DNA of 64,000 nucleotides from a phage. The translations under genes and the position numbers were made by a program. This document shows, piece after piece, positions 9,408 through 17,824 of the stretch; the first letter of the stretch is position 1; each line of letters begins with the position of its first letter. The DNA is taken from NCBI GenBank assembly GCA_018093385.1, contig GCA_018093385.1_4808.1, one strand, 5' to 3'. Under the pieces are notes generated by a model, which saw only the letters and a program-made list of their open reading frames with translations, did no database searches and was not told where the DNA came from.

Positions 9408-10868
9408 ATGAATAAAATATTAACACATAATTGGAAATTCATGTACCAGTTGAATCCTGCTTTAAAAGAAGTCTGGAAGACAAAAGCGCGATACAAAGTG
9501 ATATACGGCGGTCGTGCATCTTCCAAATCGCACGATGCCGCTGGTTTTGCTATTTATTTGGCGGCAAACTTCAAATTAAAATTCCTTTGCGTTCGACAAT
9601 TCCAGAACAAGATTTCTGAATCTGTATATACTCTATTAAAAGACAAAATAGAGATTTCTGATTTTAAAGATGAGTTCAATTTATTAAAGAACTCTATCGA
9701 ACACAAAAGAACTAAATCTGAATTTCTATTTTATGGTATCGCACGTAACGTTGATGAAATCAAATCAACAGAAGGCGTTGATGTTCTTTGGCTGGAAGAA
9801 GCGCACGCGCTTACTGAAGAACAGTGGGACATTATTGAGCCGACAATACGTAAAGAAGGGTCCGAAATATGGATCATCTTTAACCCTGATGAAGAGGCCG
9901 ATTTCGTATATCAAAACTTTGTTATGCGACCGCCGAAGAATGCCATTGTTAAAAAGATAAACTGGCAAGACAATCCATTTTTGTCGCAAACGATGCTGGA
10001 CGTTATTGCAGGCATGTACGAGCGTGACCCGAAAAAGGCAGAGCACGTTTATGGCGGCGTGCCGAAGACTGGCGGCGACAAATCTGTAATCAACCGCGCA
10101 TTCGTTAAGGCCGCGCTTAATCTACACAAGCACCCCACGCTGGGCTGGAGTTTGTCAGGGTCTAACCGTATAGGCTTTGACGTAGCGGACGATGGCGACG
10201 ACCTTAACGCCACTGCATTCGTCACAGGAAACGTATTGCGCGGCATCAAGACGTGGGAAGGCCTGGAAGATGAATTGTTGAAATCGGCAAGCGGAGTTTG
10301 GAAAGATGCGCTTACATTCGGCGCTTCCATAACTTATGACGCCATCGGTGTCGGCGCTTTTGCTGGTTCAAAATTTGATGAACTAAACGAGTATGCAATA
10401 CATGAAAATCCATCATTTCCAAGAATCGAATTTAATGCGTTCAACGCGCAAGGGTCTGTTGATGATCCTGATGACGTTTTTCTTGAATTACCACACGTTG
10501 AAATACTCAATAAAGACCATTTCGCAAACATAAAAGCGCAAAAATGGACTGAAATTGCAGAGAGATTCAGAAAGACATACGAATATGCAACTGGGCAAGC
10601 CGTATATCCGACTGATGAATTGATTTCAATCGACACCGATGGTATACCGGAACTTGGGATTCCAGCTTGGACTACTGAAGAGATTGAGACGTTTCTTTTT
10701 GAGATGTCAGCGCCGCGCAAGGATACATCTGTTCTTGGTAAGTTCAAAGTTGAATCTAAAAAGGACATGGCAAAGCGCGGAGTCAAATCACCTAACAAAG
10801 CGGACGCAGCAATCATGGCATTGATGAAACCAATCGTTGCAGCATCCGGCTTCTTCTCTAACCTTTAA
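9408..10868 (+). CDS. terL: Terminase large subunit
   Basis: Walker A-like YGGRASSKS, Walker B VLWLEEAH, nuclease-type C-half; canonical position before portal. Confidence 0.85.
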   Translation: MNKILTHNWKFMYQLNPALKEVWKTKARYKVIYGGRASSKSHDAAGFAIYLAANFKLKFLCVRQFQNKISESVYTLLKDKIEISDFKDEFNLLKNSIEHKRTKSEFLFYGIARNVDEIKSTEGVDVLWLEEAHALTEEQWDIIEPTIRKEGSEIWIIFNPDEEADFVYQNFVMRPPKNAIVKKINWQDNPFLSQTMLDVIAGMYERDPKKAEHVYGGVPKTGGDKSVINRAFVKAALNLHKHPTLGWSLSGSNRIGFDVADDGDDLNATAFVTGNVLRGIKTWEGLEDELLKSASGVWKDALTFGASITYDAIGVGAFAGSKFDELNEYAIHENPSFPRIEFNAFNAQGSVDDPDDVFLELPHVEILNKDHFANIKAQKWTEIAERFRKTYEYATGQAVYPTDELISIDTDGIPELGIPAWTTEEIETFLFEMSAPRKDTSVLGKFKVESKKDMAKRGVKSPNKADAAIMALMKPIVAASGFFSNL

Positions 10869-10871
10869 CAA

Positions 10872-11111
10872 TTAAAGCATTCCGTGCTGAAGGTCTAGTT
10901 TTCTTGCAGCAAATGACCTGGCACGGAATCGCTTACCCGCTCTTACTGCCTGCCGAATCTTCTTTTGCATACACTTACGGTCAAAATCGTTGCGGTCAAC
11001 GGCTTCGAGCAAATCCCGACGCAAAGCACCTAGTGTCGCCTTTTCGGATACTTCTATGCCCAGCGCGGCTGCAACGTCTTTCAAAACATCGAGTTCGGTT
11101 AATGTTCTCAT
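10872..11111 (-). CDS. Small hypothetical protein, basic C-terminus; second gene of inserted 2-gene unit
   Basis: 79 aa, AGGGG SD, ATGA overlap with upstream gene. Confidence 0.5.
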   Translation of the reverse strand: MRTLTELDVLKDVAAALGIEVSEKATLGALRRDLLEAVDRNDFDRKCMQKKIRQAVRAGKRFRARSFAARKLDLQHGML

Positions 11112-11524
11112 TTGATAATCCCCTTGATGTCTGATTCAGCCATAAAAATGGGAGTGCCGTTTCCAGGAACGATTGAGCGGGTAATTTTGTCAAACAGATC
11201 GCCTTCCTCGACATGAATCTTGTAAAAGAGATTCTTGGAGTTCGAAGGGCACAAACCGATGAATTTGCCGATGCCGCGCACGCATTCATCTTCAAAGTAT
11301 ACCGTTTCACCTTCGAGAGATTCGATGCTCTGGACAGGGTATACTTTACGACCCATAAGCCATTCGTCAAGCGTCGCCTGCAACACGTTTCGCGAATCTA
11401 AAATCCATGGGTCAATTTTCGCATCAGGGTATCGCGCGGCTGTCGCCTTTGCCAATTCTTCATATTCGCAGACGTTGACAACTTCGCCTTCGTGGATAAC
11501 TACAAATACAATTGTTGTGCTCAT
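11108..11524 (-). CDS. Hypothetical protein; first gene of inserted 2-gene unit
   Basis: 138 aa, strong AAAGGAG SD. Confidence 0.55.
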   Translation of the reverse strand: MSTTIVFVVIHEGEVVNVCEYEELAKATAARYPDAKIDPWILDSRNVLQATLDEWLMGRKVYPVQSIESLEGETVYFEDECVRGIGKFIGLCPSNSKNLFYKIHVEEGDLFDKITRSIVPGNGTPIFMAESDIKGIIK

Positions 11525-11685: not shown

Positions 11686-14061
11686 ATGAAAATTCTTGGC
11701 ATAAAACTCTGGGAGAAGACGCAACCAGAAGCCGAACCAGCGGAGATGCCGCCAGGCGACCCATTGGCACCGTTTGAACGCCTTGAAAGGCGCGGCAGCG
11801 GTCAACGCTGGGAAAAGACTGAAAGCAATCGACCGACCTTTAAAACGGTTGATGACTTCCCTTTATATGAGCCTGATATCAACGGGGACGGCGTTGCAAT
11901 CATCAAAGGTCGCTCAGTAGATTCAGCAACCGTATCCAAAAAAGTTATGGATAATGCCTTAAAGAACATCAGTTCAGAAGGGCAGGTGAATCCATACACA
12001 GTGCCTATTCAGTTGCAAAACTGGTACTTGTCGCAGTCATTCATCGGCTATCAAGCTTGCGCCATCATCGCGCAGCACTGGCTGGTGAACAAGGCTTGTT
12101 CCATGGTAGGTCGCGATGCGGTCCGTAAAGGCTGGGAAGTCAAATCCAGTTCTGAGTCGGAATTGTCAGTACAGGCCAGCGAACGCCTAAAGCAAATTGA
12201 TAAAGAATTTAATATCAAAGAGCACTTAGTTGAAGCCGAACGATTCAAGAATATTTTTGGCATCCGCGTCATCATATTTGATGTGCGCAGTGATGACCCA
12301 GAATATTATAGTAAACCTTTTAACATCGATGGTGTGACAAAAGGGTCTTATAAGGGAATCATTCAGGTTGACCCTTATTGGATGATGCCATTCTTGACGT
12401 CTGAAAACACTGCAGACCCTGCGTCACAGCATTTCTATGATCCAGAATACTGGGTTATCAGCGGACAGCGTTATCATCGCAGCCACCTAATCATCTTGCG
12501 CAACGATGAGCCAGCTGATATTCTCAAGCCGACTTATATCTACGGCGGCATTCCTCTGACTCAGCAGATTTATGAACGTATCTATGCCGCTGAACGTACC
12601 GCTAACGAAGCGCCATTGCTGGCGATGTCTAAGCGTACAACCACGCTGCGGACCGACGTTGACAAGGCGATTGCCAATGAGCGGTCGTTTGCCGAACGTC
12701 TGATGATGTGGATTAAGTACCGCGACAACTATGCGGTAAAAGTGCTTGGTCAGAAAGAAGAGATGGACCAGTTTGACATCAACTTGTCAGACTTCGACAG
12801 CATCATCATGAACCAGTACCAGCTGGTGGCTGCAATCGCAAAAGTGCCGTCGACGAAGCTATTAGGGACGTCACCTAAAGGCTTTAACGCCACTGGTGAG
12901 TTCGAGATGGTCAGCTATCACGAAGAATTGGAAACTTGTCAGCAGCACGATTTGACGAAGATTCTGGACCGTCACTATAAAATCCTTTTGAAATCTGAAG
13001 GTGTTGAAGTCGACGTTAAAGTGGCATGGGAGCCAGTTGGTTCACTTACTGCTACTCAGCTTGCAGAGATTAACGACAAACGAGCGAATACTGGTAAGAC
13101 TCTCATTGATGCTGGCGTCATCTCCCCTGATGAAGAGCGCGACCGCATCAAGGACGACAAAAACAGCGGCTACAACCGTTTGCCAGAAGATACAGCAGAA
13201 GAAACCCCAGGGATGTCTCCAGAGAATATGGCATTGCTTGGCAAGTCTGCTGGTGAAGTTCTGCAAGGTAAAGCCGATATTGAACAGGCCAAAGCTGATG
13301 TCGTCAAGATGGGCGGCCAGTTCTATAGTGAGACTGGTATCATGCCGGAAGGTGCCGCGCGCGGTGAGTTGGCAGAAAACCCTGACAGGGCGCCAGTTGA
13401 GATCAACATGGATGATACCGATGACGAATCAAGCCATCAGGTTGATGTCCTAACGCAACTGAAAGAAGGTCTGGAGGGTATTGCTGACTATTACCTTAAA
13501 GAAGGTCAGGATGTGGATTTTGACCCTCAAAAAGACGCAAGGTCTGTGCAGCCGTCTACCCTTCCAAGCGTAAAAGGCAATGTAGTCAACTTGCGCCACA
13601 ATGTAGGGAAGATGGATGCCTCATCGCTGCCTAAGATGAAGTTGCACGGGATGATTCTTGGTATTGAGAATCCTCGCAACAGCATTCGCAGGGGCAACAG
13701 CCTTGATGGTGAATGGGCAGTTAAGATGCCGCACCATTACGGATTTATCAAAGGCACCAAGGGCGCTGATGGTGATGAAGTCGACTGCTTTGTTGGACCA
13801 AATATGAAGTCGCCTAAAGTATTCATCATTAACCAAAATGATAATTATTCTGGCGAATTTGATGAACACAAGTGTATGCTTGGATTTGATTCAGCAGAAG
13901 AAGCGAAAGAAGCTTATCAAGCATCATTTGGTAACGGTTGGAATGGATTTGACTCAATCCACGAATTGGATGTAAACTCATTCAAGGAGTGGTTGAAGGG
14001 TGATTGCTCTCAAGCATATGGAGCACTCAATAATCCTACTAATTCACCGAAGCAAGGTTGA
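11686..14061 (+). CDS. Portal protein with C-terminal inorganic-pyrophosphatase-like segment
   Basis: 791 aa between terL and Mu-F-like gene; C-terminus has HYGFIKGT...DGDEVDC...AEEAKEAYQASF. Confidence 0.65.
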   Translation: MKILGIKLWEKTQPEAEPAEMPPGDPLAPFERLERRGSGQRWEKTESNRPTFKTVDDFPLYEPDINGDGVAIIKGRSVDSATVSKKVMDNALKNISSEGQVNPYTVPIQLQNWYLSQSFIGYQACAIIAQHWLVNKACSMVGRDAVRKGWEVKSSSESELSVQASERLKQIDKEFNIKEHLVEAERFKNIFGIRVIIFDVRSDDPEYYSKPFNIDGVTKGSYKGIIQVDPYWMMPFLTSENTADPASQHFYDPEYWVISGQRYHRSHLIILRNDEPADILKPTYIYGGIPLTQQIYERIYAAERTANEAPLLAMSKRTTTLRTDVDKAIANERSFAERLMMWIKYRDNYAVKVLGQKEEMDQFDINLSDFDSIIMNQYQLVAAIAKVPSTKLLGTSPKGFNATGEFEMVSYHEELETCQQHDLTKILDRHYKILLKSEGVEVDVKVAWEPVGSLTATQLAEINDKRANTGKTLIDAGVISPDEERDRIKDDKNSGYNRLPEDTAEETPGMSPENMALLGKSAGEVLQGKADIEQAKADVVKMGGQFYSETGIMPEGAARGELAENPDRAPVEINMDDTDDESSHQVDVLTQLKEGLEGIADYYLKEGQDVDFDPQKDARSVQPSTLPSVKGNVVNLRHNVGKMDASSLPKMKLHGMILGIENPRNSIRRGNSLDGEWAVKMPHHYGFIKGTKGADGDEVDCFVGPNMKSPKVFIINQNDNYSGEFDEHKCMLGFDSAEEAKEAYQASFGNGWNGFDSIHELDVNSFKEWLKGDCSQAYGALNNPTNSPKQG

Positions 14062-14062
14062 T

Positions 14063-14914
14063 ATGGCTTTTAAAGCTTCGAAAAAACGTGAACGTCGCTC
14101 GCCCGATAGAATCGGGCGCGGCAGTCCGATAATCCCATCCAACGCTATTGCGATGGCCTATCGTCGTGAGATGAAAGGTCTTTGCTATGCGATGATTGAC
14201 GACTATCAAGCAGGAATTGCTGAGTGGCTTGAAAAGAAGCAGGTTAAAAAGTTCTTTGCGCAAGACTCTGCTGATTCAACTTTTCAGACCTTGATGAAGC
14301 GACTGCAACTGAAATGGGCAAAAGCTTTCGCCCGTGTCGGGTCAAAGATTGCCGCAGATTTCATCAAGTCAGTTGAAAAGGGTGCCACTTCTGCTACATT
14401 TGCAAGTCTTAAATCTGCAGGAATAGAAGCGCCAAAAGCCACATATAATAAATTCGTTGAGAACACTCTTAAAACAAGCGAGACGTTCAACACGACTTTA
14501 GTGACTAAGGTTGGCGAAGATATTCACAACAGGGTGTACGAAGCGGTGATGCTTTCGCTTACTTCGCCAGACCCAGCGCAACAAGGCACGTCCGGCATTC
14601 AGGCGGCATTAAGGAATGTAAAACACTTCTCTGCAAAACGCGTAGACCTTATTGCAAAAGACCAAACAAGCAAACTTTATTGCGTATTAAGTGATGAAAG
14701 GATGCGACAGAATGGCGTTGAGGAATTTGAGTGGGCGCATTCAGGAGCAGGAAAAGAGCCGCGAATATCGCATGAGCACGTCGACGGAATGAGATTTAAA
14801 CTTGATGACAAGCGCCTATGGGAAGTTGGCGGCGAATTGAAGTTCAAAAAGGGTGACATCGGTCCTCCTGGATGGGCGATACACTGCAAGTGCAGAAAAA
14901 TACCAATTATCTGA
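14063..14914 (+). CDS. Head morphogenesis protein (Mu gpF / SPP1 gp7-like)
   Basis: Position after portal; Cys/His-containing C-terminal region. Confidence 0.5.
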   Translation: MAFKASKKRERRSPDRIGRGSPIIPSNAIAMAYRREMKGLCYAMIDDYQAGIAEWLEKKQVKKFFAQDSADSTFQTLMKRLQLKWAKAFARVGSKIAADFIKSVEKGATSATFASLKSAGIEAPKATYNKFVENTLKTSETFNTTLVTKVGEDIHNRVYEAVMLSLTSPDPAQQGTSGIQAALRNVKHFSAKRVDLIAKDQTSKLYCVLSDERMRQNGVEEFEWAHSGAGKEPRISHEHVDGMRFKLDDKRLWEVGGELKFKKGDIGPPGWAIHCKCRKIPII

Positions 14915-14921
14915 GGTCATT

Positions 14922-15842
14922 ATGACGATACCAATCAACACATTCCCTCTATCTGGACAAACTCCAGTCTTGCCTGCGGTGTATGCTAATGGCTTGGCAA
15001 TTGTCTCAGAATTCACTTCTGATAAAAACTTGATTGTTCCACTGAGCCCGCCGCTTGCATCAGGGTATAACTCAGTAGGCCAATTCTTTATGATTGGCAA
15101 TGATGGCGATTCGACCAGCAAGCCTAATCTGACATTGTCTGTACCTAAGATGGACATCACAGACGTTCAAACTGGCTTGACTGCATCAACAATCACCATT
15201 GCTTTTGGAGAAGCGGTGATTATAGGAATGGAGTCTGGAGGGTCCAAGAATGCTGTCGCCGTTAAGGTAGTCAAATCCAGCGACAACCAATACACGTTAC
15301 CAGCTGCGACGGCTTCCGTTCTCGGCGGCGTCAAAATAGGAAGCGGAATAAGCGTCGCAGGTGACGGTACAATTAGCGTCACTCAATACTCATTGCCGAT
15401 TGCGTCAGCATCTACTTTAGGCGGCGTAAAGGTCGGTACAACTCTATCAATTGATGGTTCCGGTGTGCTTAACGCAGCGGAAAGCACCGTCCAGAATGCC
15501 ACGAACAGTGTTAGCAATCCTCCAACCACTTTGGTTAATCTGGCAACCTTAAACCTTCCTGCAGGAAAGTGGCTTGTGACGGCAAGTCAGTTGACTGTCG
15601 CGACAGCAGGAATTCAAGCGAACACCGGAATTACAGCCAAATTGTCAACAAGCGATTCAGATATTACGGATGATGCATTTACGATGTCAGCTGGCATTCG
15701 GGCTGCAGGTCGTTTCGGCGGCAATATTCCAACAAAGATAATTACTCTTGCCGCGCCTGGCGATGTGTATCTAAACTATCAATGCACAGATGCGTTGACA
15801 TCTACCGTTTACGGACAGATCACCGCAATCAAGCTGAACTAA
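14922..15842 (+). CDS. Structural protein with internal tandem Gly-rich repeat
   Basis: GAGGT SD; repeated LGGVK(I/V)G...(D)G(T/S)(I/G)...segments. Confidence 0.5.
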   Translation: MTIPINTFPLSGQTPVLPAVYANGLAIVSEFTSDKNLIVPLSPPLASGYNSVGQFFMIGNDGDSTSKPNLTLSVPKMDITDVQTGLTASTITIAFGEAVIIGMESGGSKNAVAVKVVKSSDNQYTLPAATASVLGGVKIGSGISVAGDGTISVTQYSLPIASASTLGGVKVGTTLSIDGSGVLNAAESTVQNATNSVSNPPTTLVNLATLNLPAGKWLVTASQLTVATAGIQANTGITAKLSTSDSDITDDAFTMSAGIRAAGRFGGNIPTKIITLAAPGDVYLNYQCTDALTSTVYGQITAIKLN

Positions 15843-16382: not shown

Positions 16383-16411
16383 ACACAATACTTATTTGAG
16401 GGTGGATGCGA

Positions 16412-17824
16412 ATGCAAACGGCACGCGAAATTGACAAAAATGGATTCTTGACGATTATGGGTTGTCCAATTTCGTCATTTGGCATTTTTGATTATTCTGC
16501 TGGTCAAGTTGGTCTTGATGGTGATCCGAATCGCATCGTAAAAGTCTATCGCCCTGAGTCAGCGGTGAAAGACCCCGAAGCGATAGATTCATTCAAAAAT
16601 ATCCCTTTCATCGACAATCACGAAATGCTTTCTGGATTTGAAGGTGATGAGGATAACACAGCACCCGAAGAGTATGGAGTTGATGGCGTTCTGACTGGCA
16701 ATGTTTATTATGACAAGCCATGGATGCGCGGCGACCTTAAAGTGTTTAGCCGTCGTCTGAAGAAGGCCATTGATTCTGGAAAGGTTGACTTGTCTTTGGG
16801 CTATGACTGTGAATTCATCATACAGTCTGGAGAGTTTGACGGGCAGCCGTATGAAGTGGTGCAGACAACTCTTCGCGGCAACCACATTGCTCTCGTGGAC
16901 GTTGGTCGAGTACCAGGTGCACGGGTGCTGGATGGTCGTTGCTTTGACCATCTTTGTTTGACGACTGTAACACCATCCAACGAGGATTTAGACATGCCAA
17001 AACCGTTAAAAGGTAAAGCGCGTGATAATGCTGTTGAACAGCTGAAATCACTGATCCCTGCGCTCGAACAATTTCTGAATGAAGAGAGTACTGAAGCTGC
17101 TCATCAGGACGAAGTTGAAGTGAAAGCAGAAGAGAAGGACTCAACCGAAAATCGTGAAGAAGTAATGGTTGATCCAGAAGTCAAGGCAGAAGCAGAAGAA
17201 ACCCCAGAAGGTGAAGAGAAGTTTGAAGTTGAAACTGAATCTCACGCCAGCGGCGAACTTCCGCAATTGATCAGCCAAATCGAAGCACTTATTGCAAAAC
17301 TGAAAGGTGGCGCGGTAGGTGATGAAGAAGAAGTTGAAGCCGAAGTCAAAGACGAAGAAGTTGAAGTCAAGGCTGAAGATGTATCACCTTGCGACAAAGC
17401 TGAAGATGTGGTTAGCGGCCTGCAAAACAGCAACGTAAAGGGGGCTTCGGTCGAAAAAGATGACAAACCGACAAAAGCGGCGAAAGCGTCGCCAGGTCCA
17501 GCAAAAGGGGAACACTCAATGGCATCTGATTCAGCAGTTGCTGCTTTCTACGCTGATTCTGCTCGTAAGAATAGCCTCTACCAGCGCCTGTCTAAAGTTG
17601 TTGGTGCCTTTGATCATGCAACTATGGACTCCAAGTCCGTAGCGAAATATGGCGCTAAAAAGTTAGGCTTGAAGTGCGTTGATGGTGCTGAGTTTGACGT
17701 GGTGGATAATTATCTGCGCGGCGTTGAGCACGGTCAGAAACAGCGTGTAGTCGCAAAACAAAAGGCCGCTGCGGATTCTGCAGCAACTGACGAAGCATTT
17801 GAAGCTTGGTTGAAAGGGGAATAA
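16412..17824 (+). CDS. Scaffolding/prohead maturation protein (acidic repeat-rich)
   Basis: Glu-rich EVEAEVKDEEVEVKAE repeats; immediately upstream of capsid gene; ORF-track start 16406. Confidence 0.55.
   Translation: MQTAREIDKNGFLTIMGCPISSFGIFDYSAGQVGLDGDPNRIVKVYRPESAVKDPEAIDSFKNIPFIDNHEMLSGFEGDEDNTAPEEYGVDGVLTGNVYYDKPWMRGDLKVFSRRLKKAIDSGKVDLSLGYDCEFIIQSGEFDGQPYEVVQTTLRGNHIALVDVGRVPGARVLDGRCFDHLCLTTVTPSNEDLDMPKPLKGKARDNAVEQLKSLIPALEQFLNEESTEAAHQDEVEVKAEEKDSTENREEVMVDPEVKAEAEETPEGEEKFEVETESHASGELPQLISQIEALIAKLKGGAVGDEEEVEAEVKDEEVEVKAEDVSPCDKAEDVVSGLQNSNVKGASVEKDDKPTKAAKASPGPAKGEHSMASDSAVAAFYADSARKNSLYQRLSKVVGAFDHATMDSKSVAKYGAKKLGLKCVDGAEFDVVDNYLRGVEHGQKQRVVAKQKAAADSAATDEAFEAWLKGE

Follow-up and report, generated by a model that had tools for sequence, protein, structure and literature searches.

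Why should a phage portal protein end in what resembles an enzyme? The question is raised by one gene in a 64,000-nt stretch of phage DNA (contig GCA_018093385.1_4808.1 of assembly GCA_018093385.1; hereafter the window). An earlier note on this DNA had seen in the last part of the 791-residue portal the motif HYGFIKGT...DGDEVDC, which it likened to the signature of family I inorganic pyrophosphatases, and had left open whether the segment was a degenerate domain or a separate gene joined by a sequencing error. The fusion of a pyrophosphatase-related domain to the portal C-terminus is real in this E. coli Wifcevirus phage. It is also already known, given a computational description from 2017, a Pfam family of its own and its presence in hundreds of related phages. 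The gene sits in a terminase/portal/MuF/protease/capsid module, with the following parts and neighbours.

9408-10868, plus strand: terminase large subunit (PF04466, E 3e-37; same annotation in relatives), the upstream member of the packaging/head module.
11686-14061, plus strand: portal-InPase fusion gene, a 791-aa ORF, TGA stop included; it has Pfam portal and InPase domains, and PHROG 4660 spans its full length.
12049-13089, plus strand: portal core domain (Phage_portal_3/DUF1073, residues 122-468; PF06381, E 4.4e-88), to which the segment modelled in E217 gp19 (PDB 8fvh) aligns.
13219-13332, plus strand: long C-terminal helix (about residues 512-549), at positions 42-79 of an AlphaFold model of residues 471-791.
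13333-13629, plus strand: tether, acidic and varying in length (about residues 550-648), with one conserved amphipathic helix inside (residues 585-600, from AlphaFold and comparison).
13630-13998, plus strand: InPase domain (PF18823, residues 649-771), related to family I inorganic pyrophosphatase but trimmed.
13768-13788, plus strand: DGDEVDC, predicted metal-binding signature (residues 695-701, with D695, D697 and D700), aligning to E. coli Ppa D65-G-D67-P-V-D70.
13999-14061, plus strand: unstructured C-terminal tail (pLDDT <50) and stop codon; the DNA holds the ribosome-binding region of the next gene.
14063-14914, plus strand: MuF-like head morphogenesis protein (PF04233, E 4e-7; PHROG 324, E 3.5e-67), directly downstream of the portal gene.
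16406-17824, plus strand: DUF2213 head maturation protease (PF09979, E 5e-35; PHROG 3778, E 1e-172), annotated as maturation protease in relatives.

Over its full length the protein is homologous to the Pa193 gp19 portal (PDB 9b41; E 7e-251), and E217 gp19 (PDB 8fvh) is likewise a homologue (E 3.5e-189). Both structures are portal dodecamers. Wifcevirus genes annotated as portal or 'minor head protein' are 92-98% identical to the window gene in nucleotide sequence. The two Pbunavirus proteins share with ours the portal core, the barrel helix, the tether, the InPase domain and the order of the head-module genes, at about 53% overall identity, but their tether is unlike in length and sequence. 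The portal-MuF gene order is also found in PB1, MyoSmar, FoX6 and Pluto. By sequence alignment, the long helix at residues 512-549 is the counterpart of the barrel helix that extends into the head in the portals of E217 and Pa193.

Is the C-terminal part truly related to pyrophosphatases? The HMM and fold comparisons that the earlier note had proposed bear this out. PF18823 matches residues 649-771 with 156.6 bits (E 4.3e-46; profile positions 12-135 of 135) against a curated gathering score of 26.8 bits. The limits of this match place the start of the domain at 13630, about 60 nt upstream of the 13690 first proposed, and its end at 13998. The motif lies where it had been placed, HYGFIKGT beginning at residue 684 (nt 13735). 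DGDEVDC is the single match, in six frames of the whole window, to D-[SGDN]-D-[PE]-[LIVMF]-D-[LIVMGAC], which we take to be the PROSITE pyrophosphatase signature; 0.02 matches were expected from shuffles.

Profile and structure comparisons point the same way. When an 18-sequence InPase profile was searched against the PDB, it returned inorganic pyrophosphatases only, the phage portal itself aside. A comparison of InPase with pyrophosphatase by hhalign gave a probability of 92.8% (E 4e-7) over the YG..T...DGD.VD core, with a pyrophosphatase profile that is shallow, since its homologue set was >82% identical; only 24-27 core residues align reliably to E. coli Ppa. The classical family model, PF00719, stays below its cut-off of 23.5 bits (18.2 bits with the full protein, 20.8 bits with the C-terminal fragment), the alignment covering residues 679-703 only. 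The domain has the pyrophosphatase fold (an OB-like beta-barrel with two helices), and its best PDB fold match is a family I pyrophosphatase, at TM-scores against pyrophosphatases of only 0.27-0.48. Between the strands of IEN and HYGFI, the AlphaFold model keeps a hairpin, made of model strands 39-44 and 47-52. As had been noticed, the domain is shorter than a complete pyrophosphatase (about 125 residues vs. about 175 in E. coli Ppa). In sum, the last ~140 residues of the portal are a genuine InPase domain, a shortened and divergent branch of the family I pyrophosphatase superfamily, and this branch is typical of the 'polyvalent' virion proteins of phages.

The domain is not degenerate, as had been suspected it might be. 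Conservation among 174 diverse InPase domains reaches 95% or more at ten positions (E661, R668, Y685, D695, D700, Q717, D726, E727, K729 and Y744), and all ten residues are present here. The set conserved at 91-99% in the same domains also takes in G670, W677, G686, D697, G704, G733 and A740, again all found in the window protein. At the predicted metal site, conservation is 98% for D695, 91% for D697 and 99% for D700. The active site of E. coli Ppa consists of about 14 residues (E20, K29, E31, R43, Y51, Y55, D65, D67, D70, D97, D102, K104, Y141 and K142). Of these, Y55, D65, D67 and D70 align reliably to the window domain. Going by secondary structure and order in the sequence, plausible conserved counterparts are E661 for E20, R668 for R43 or K29, D726 for D102, K729 for K104 and Y744 for Y141. 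No conserved counterpart was identified for E31 and K142, and the D97-equivalent position is variable. As the counterparts of these three are not evident, the site for the leaving group could be different, and the substrate could be something other than pyrophosphate. The portal-fused copies also do without the N-terminal motif PTEAQKEAGNYKKGH, which is conserved in most other InPase members. The common ground with E. coli Ppa (PF00719) is the core YG(Y/F)I..T...DGD.(V/L)D with its three metal-binding aspartates. Ppa is about 50 residues longer. The InPase domain of the window, with its predicted activity, forms part of a structural virion protein. We think it most likely that the domain is a metal-dependent phosphoanhydride hydrolase.

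A second likeness had been drawn earlier between AEEAKEAYQASF of the portal and AEAAKAEIVASF of Ppa. The sequence is present (residues 737-748, nt 13894-13929), but its equivalence to the C-terminal helix of Ppa finds no support. The topology is against it: in the AlphaFold model, the helix that holds AEEAKEAYQASF is the one that comes first after the D726-K729 strand. A relaxed hhalign run puts Ppa 'AEIVASFERA' opposite 'DVNSFKEW' instead, at low confidence. The likeness is probably a chance resemblance between helices.

The concern that a frameshift in sequencing or assembly had merged a separate gene with the portal, or that the motif matched by chance, has nothing in its favour beyond having been raised, and the comparative data already refute it. 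The portal gene is covered 100% in each of 29 related, independent phage records; all eight Wifcevirus genes checked are intact ORFs of 2376 nt; and dN/dS in the InPase domain, in the portal frame, is 0.022 among these eight. The segment is under strong purifying selection. The fusion is common to five genera, with PB1-like Pseudomonas, Serratia, Xanthomonas and Luteibacter phages keeping it, and the gp19 sequence of the PDB entry (765 aa) contains it. Adding the Pfam E-value of 4e-46 and the lack of a conserved internal start (ATG 13612), we give an artefact practically no chance. Between genera it is the InPase domain that is conserved and not the tether, where indels and low conservation prevail except in a helix of the form LLxxLxxxLxxIxD. 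AlphaFold predicts that the tether is disordered, with pLDDT <50 at residues 549-563 and 611-640 and the helix 585-600 between them.

The earlier note knew of no portal with such an extension; the literature does. Iyer, Burroughs, Anand, de Souza and Aravind (2017, J Bacteriol 199:e00245-17; PMC5512222) defined the InPase domain and named its portal fusions (BcepF1.124). The window protein agrees with their polyvalent InPase (PF18823) in the family-invariant residues, in its location in a virion protein and in the fusion to a portal. The polyvalent proteins, however, are giants of 2-15 domains, whereas ours is a minimal two-domain combination of portal and InPase. A pyrophosphatase domain is also flagged in the GenBank annotations of Serratia phage MyoSmar and Luteibacter phage Pluto. 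With the domain family, the Pfam model and the portal fusion all published in 2017, our analysis adds little as discovery. Our literature search for biochemical or genetic work on InPase domains or portal-borne pyrophosphatases found nothing beyond Iyer et al. (2017).

Where would the domain be in the virion? In the cryo-EM structures of E217 and Pa193 gp19, residues 94/97-528 are modelled, with the barrel pointing into the capsid, and residues 529-765 have no density. By analogy, the C-terminus of the window portal would also point into the capsid, and a virion would then carry 12 InPase domains in its head, held on flexible tethers of about 100 residues beyond the portal barrel. The word 'pyrophosphatase' is used in neither structure paper. 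Some 240 C-terminal portal residues are thus unexplained by two high-resolution virion structures, which leave the enzyme-like domain unmentioned. In PB1-like virions (SCUT-S1), mass spectrometry recovered the portal homologue with 44 peptides and 59% coverage, peptide positions not being given. A domain still on the portal would be unable to get into the cell down a tail of ~150 nm, a point against delivery unless the domain is cut free.

We think it likely that the InPase domain is packaged by way of the portal, freed by proteolysis, carried out with the DNA, and active in the new cell on pyrophosphate or a diphosphate-containing nucleotide. By this scheme, the portal fusion would package a Mg2+-dependent phosphoanhydride hydrolase into the head, and proteolysis, for which the DUF2213 head maturation protease is the candidate enzyme, would free the domain. 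It would then exit together with the DNA, and hydrolysis of pyrophosphate in the newly infected cell would pull forward the nucleotidyl-transfer reactions of the phage, transcription, replication and ligation among them; a diphosphate-containing nucleotide would be the alternative substrate. Such a release, for action at an early stage of infection, is probable. The packaging logic is supported by InPase fusions in two portal families, PF06381 and PF04860, that are unrelated, and Iyer et al. (2017) infer the same logic. The domain is also embedded in the giant polyvalent virion proteins, and it occurs as a stand-alone gene. In one relative, two InPase domains are fused to a DNA ligase of the ATP-dependent type. 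Such a ligase gives off pyrophosphate, and the fusion therefore argues for pyrophosphate as the substrate. A narrower form of the proposal appears doubtful to us: that the portal-tethered domain is cleaved in head maturation, injected, and then either breaks down an immune or alarmone signal of the host that contains pyrophosphate or makes the local pool of pyrophosphate collapse. If true, collapse of the pool would speed phage transcription and replication and could contribute to a short latent period; an unusually short one is reported for Wifcevirus phages. Either option, if true, would make the domain the first portal-borne cargo to be defined enzymatically.

Two other readings of the function deserve weighing. 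The injected domain might serve counter-defence, hydrolysing a host diphosphate-containing nucleotide (an alarmone or immune signal) and not free pyrophosphate, and so blunting defence. Iyer et al. (2017) found related InPase domains beside or fused to NUDIX, GNAT and TmrB and proposed a nucleotide-like substrate. InPase is moreover characteristic of polyvalent proteins, a group in which anti-restriction and anti-defence modules abound, and the resident immunity of E. coli K-12 strongly affects Wifcevirus phages. The classical pyrophosphate-binding residues, too, are only partly matched by conserved counterparts. The metal-binding core, however, is that of a classical pyrophosphatase, the AlphaFold model of the 123-residue domain has no visible nucleotide-binding extension, and the ligase fusion is a better fit to pyrophosphate removal. 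On balance we hold this use of the domain to be unlikely.

Alternatively, the domain may never be delivered. It would stay on the portal and work within the capsid or the cell that produces the phage, either as a local pyrophosphatase in late replication and assembly or as a plug or oligomerising module that aids formation of the portal ring or orders the packaged DNA. Family I pyrophosphatases of bacteria form oligomers, and the twelve copies on their tethers could associate with one another; the conserved amphipathic helix of the tether might dock somewhere; and the E217 portal barrel switches state with DNA content. Yet neither cryo-EM study has density for an ordered C-terminal assembly. 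Terminase-driven packaging converts ATP to ADP and phosphate, so no source of pyrophosphate is known inside the capsid. InPase is also found outside portals, in polyvalent proteins and as a gene of its own, which counts against this reading too, and the strictly conserved residues of catalytic type argue against a purely structural one. We regard retention on the portal as quite improbable.

Delivery with the DNA, the reading we prefer, has parallels. T4 Alt and the T4 internal proteins are packaged in the capsid and injected, and they carry a cleavable capsid-targeting sequence. PBECR and 2H domains fused to MuF or portal proteins follow the same logic, in which a virion module loads an enzyme into the head. 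The T4 proteins depend on the cleavable sequence for targeting, whereas in the present case the portal would itself be the carrier and would fix the copy number at 12. Twelve pyrophosphatase-like domains at the DNA exit of a virion would make a simple and tractable system for studying what phages deliver besides DNA, and one suited to the question whether hydrolysis of pyrophosphate or nucleotides is important in the opening seconds of an infection. Sequenced phages of Wifcevirus and Pbunavirus have this gene too, and some of these phages are in therapeutic use.

Some smaller features of the gene may be recorded. The ATG at 13612 was considered as an internal start for a free InPase protein and rejected: the ribosome-binding-like sequence before it is poorly spaced, and the ATG is absent in PB1. 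A minus-strand ORF (13621-13869) overlaps the InPase domain; as the signal of selection sits in the plus frame, we treat it as a mechanical ORF. Finally, the DNA of the tail is nearly invariant, with 0 variable sites at 14026-14061 and a dS of 0.04 among eight phages.

The window covers most of the genome of an Escherichia coli myophage of the genus Wifcevirus. Its portal gene matches 29 phage records over its full length at 92-98% nucleotide identity, including vB_Eco4M-7, SP13, F13, Bas98-101, Mansfield, WFC and FEC19, where it is labeled "portal protein", "minor head protein" or "hypothetical protein". The gene and the Pfam domains of its product are:

11686-14061, plus strand: portal-InPase open reading frame, 791 residues
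Residues 122-468: Phage_portal_3 (PF06381), E 4.4e-88
Residues 649-771: InPase, "Inorganic Pyrophosphatase" (PF18823), E 4.3e-46, 156.6 bits (cut-off 26.8)

PHROG 4660 spans the whole protein, so the portal plus InPase architecture is a recognized phage protein family. The classical pyrophosphatase model (PF00719) matches residues 679-703 only, at 18-21 bits, below its cut-off of 23.5.

The earlier note had proposed a pyrophosphatase-like domain on this portal, and the PF18823 match and a profile-profile comparison both uphold it. The two strings on which the proposal rested lie at residues 684-701 and 737-748. DGDEVDC agrees with the classical PROSITE pyrophosphatase signature D-[SGDN]-D-[PE]-[LIVMF]-D-[LIVMGAC] and is its only match in the six frames of the window (chance expectation 0.02). 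When a profile of 18 InPase sequences was compared with all PDB sequences, it found a homologous phage portal and otherwise inorganic pyrophosphatases only (20 distinct sequences, E 0.003 to 1.2). Against E. coli-type pyrophosphatases, profile-profile comparison reached a probability of 92.8% (E 4e-7), the confident part of the alignment being a core of 24-27 residues, M..HYG(F/Y)I.GT.GADGDEVD. Together, the signature, the PDB search and the profile-profile match argue that the domain is truly related to family I pyrophosphatase, though distant from it and shortened. The earlier observation holds, its statistics are solid, and the domain is securely assigned. The further likeness drawn between AEEAKEAYQASF and AEAAKAEIVASF of Ppa, the E. 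coli family I enzyme, is probably coincidental. In the predicted model AEEAKEAYQASF is the first helix after the D726-K729 strand, in topology the place of helix A in Ppa, and relaxed hhalign places "DVNSFKEW" opposite the Ppa C-terminal helix; AEEAKEAYQASF was thus rejected as the counterpart of that helix.

Four active-site residues pair reliably with those of the E. coli enzyme: Y685/Y55, D695/D65, D697/D67 and D700/D70. Going by chain order and predicted secondary structure rather than by superposition, E661 may correspond to E20, R668 to R43 or K29, D726 and K729 to D102 and K104, and Y744 (or position 748) to Y141. The metal-binding core looks intact. The position facing D97 in the HMMER alignment is variable across the family, and no conserved counterparts of E31 and K142 were identified in the family alignment. 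The leaving-group phosphate site may differ from the classical one, so the substrate may be something other than pyrophosphate.

It had also been considered that a frameshift or sequencing error could have joined two genes, or that the domain was degenerate. Neither idea holds. All eight Wifcevirus portal genes compared are unbroken 2376-nt reading frames, with pairwise dN/dS of 0.022 in InPase, 0.019 in the acidic tether (residues ~550-648) that precedes it and 0.007 in the portal core. The same fusion occurs in Pseudomonas phage PB1, Serratia phage MyoSmar, Xanthomonas phage FoX6 and Luteibacter phage Pluto, where the portal core and InPase are conserved and the ~100 residues between them vary in sequence and length. 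By tblastn, the InPase domain is present in 471 phage records (294 Pseudomonas, 70 Vibrio, 27 Escherichia, and others). Among 174 InPase copies, taken from representatives of diverse 50%-identity clusters, conservation is at least 95% at E661, R668, G670, W677, Y685, G686, D695, D700, G704, Q717, D726, E727, K729, G733, A740 and Y744, and 91% at D697. None of these residues is missing from the window protein, and its domain is a whole member of a separate, shorter family. The fusion is genuine, and selection maintains it. An internal start yielding a free InPase domain is poorly supported and not conserved.

The earlier note knew of no portal with such an extension, but these portals have been described before and are common. 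InPase was described as a monophyletic branch of the type I pyrophosphatases, with portal fusions stated and BcepF1.124 as an example (Iyer, Burroughs, Anand, de Souza and Aravind, J Bacteriol 2017, PMC5512222). That paper offered two possible roles: hydrolyzing a nucleotide-like substrate made as a reaction to infection, or clearing pyrophosphate, which would aid early replication and transcription. The MyoSmar GenBank record gives this portal an InterPro domain, "Inorganic pyrophosphatase family", the Pluto portal is labeled "inorganic pyrophosphatase", and several viral relatives in UniProt are "Inorganic pyrophosphatase domain-containing protein"; the top BFVD match is a Serratia phage portal. 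No biochemical or genetic work on an InPase domain came up in our literature search.

The family is very large (12,077 cluster representatives, E up to 0.001), its top matches being mostly proteins of 1,000-6,600 residues. The domain occurs as a stand-alone gene, in giant polyvalent proteins (e.g., one from a Vibrio phage that joins InPase to methyltransferase and LPD39 domains) and as a fusion to portals from two families that are not related to each other (PF06381 and PF04860). In a 742-aa metagenomic representative (P0101) it forms the C-terminus of a PF04860 HK97-type portal; since that portal is of a different family, the architecture seems to have arisen at least twice. Another representative (P0023, 767 aa) combines a LigD 3'-phosphoesterase, an ATP-dependent DNA ligase and two InPase domains, one of which also clears the PF00719 cut-off (27.9 bits). 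Because ligase adenylylation releases pyrophosphate, this fusion fits pyrophosphate removal and hints at its coupling to ligation. Most non-portal InPase domains have a conserved N-terminal motif, approximately P-T-E-A-Q-K-E-A-G-N-Y-K-K-G-H, at the equivalents of residues 636-650; the portal-fused domains have D.S.LPK.K in its place. In polyvalent proteins the motif may contribute further lysines, or a tyrosine, to substrate binding.

Cryo-EM virion structures exist for Pseudomonas phages Pa193 and E217 (PDB 9b41, 8fvh), and their portal, gp19, is homologous to the window protein over its full length (E 7e-251). The gp19 models cover residues 94/97-528 of 765, with a C-terminal barrel of helices that extends into the head. 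Residues 529-765 have no discernible density in E217 or Pa193, and the word "pyrophosphatase" is absent from both structure papers. An AlphaFold model of residues 471-791 has a long helix (512-549) equivalent to the portal barrel, low-confidence segments at 549-563 and 611-640, and a well-folded InPase domain. Mid-tether, it and the alignment place an amphipathic helix at residues 585-600 (window 13438-13485; LLxxLxxxLxxIxD, then PEG) that is kept in all five genera compared and in three metagenomic fragments (P0001-P0003), the rest of the tether being variable. This helix might serve for docking, or a cleavage site might be close to it. In PB1-like virions the portal homolog is abundant by mass spectrometry (84.5 kDa, 44 peptides, 59% coverage). 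Twelve InPase domains per virion would sit inside the capsid, flexibly tethered above the portal. As a ~100-residue tether is too short for a ~150 nm tail, delivery into the cell would need proteolytic release, for which the obvious candidate is:

16406-17824: DUF2213 head maturation protease, four genes downstream of the portal gene

On the best-supported reading, InPase would be a metal-dependent phosphoanhydride hydrolase that is packaged in the virion and probably freed, to be delivered along with the DNA. Wifcevirus phages reportedly have latent periods of only 3-5 min and are blocked by E. coli K-12 cryptic-prophage immunity (BASEL collection preprint, 10.1101/2024.09.12.612763); both traits might be related to a putative delivered pyrophosphatase-like enzyme.

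The eight Wifcevirus genes do not differ at any site in the final 36 nt (14026-14061), and in codons 772-791 (13999-14061) dS is 0.04, as against 0.2-0.5 elsewhere in the portal gene; the encoded tail has no ordered structure, nor is it conserved from genus to genus. The invariance probably reflects a region for ribosome binding and coupling that serves the MuF-like gene (ATG 14063). Another possibility is an alternative start further upstream, GTG 14000, in another frame. Other neighbors are:

10872-11111 and 11108-11524, minus strand: two small ORFs of 79 and 138 aa that overlap each other in the interval from terminase to portal gene
14922-15842: gene after the MuF-like gene, with weak head-fiber/tail-fiber repeat matches (PF11133, E 8e-7; PHROG 9625)

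The small ORFs have no match in Pfam or PHROG and are "hypothetical" in every Wifcevirus relative examined. The 14922-15842 gene is called "tail fiber protein" in Bas101, yet lies inside the head module; its product may be a capsid decoration or head fiber.
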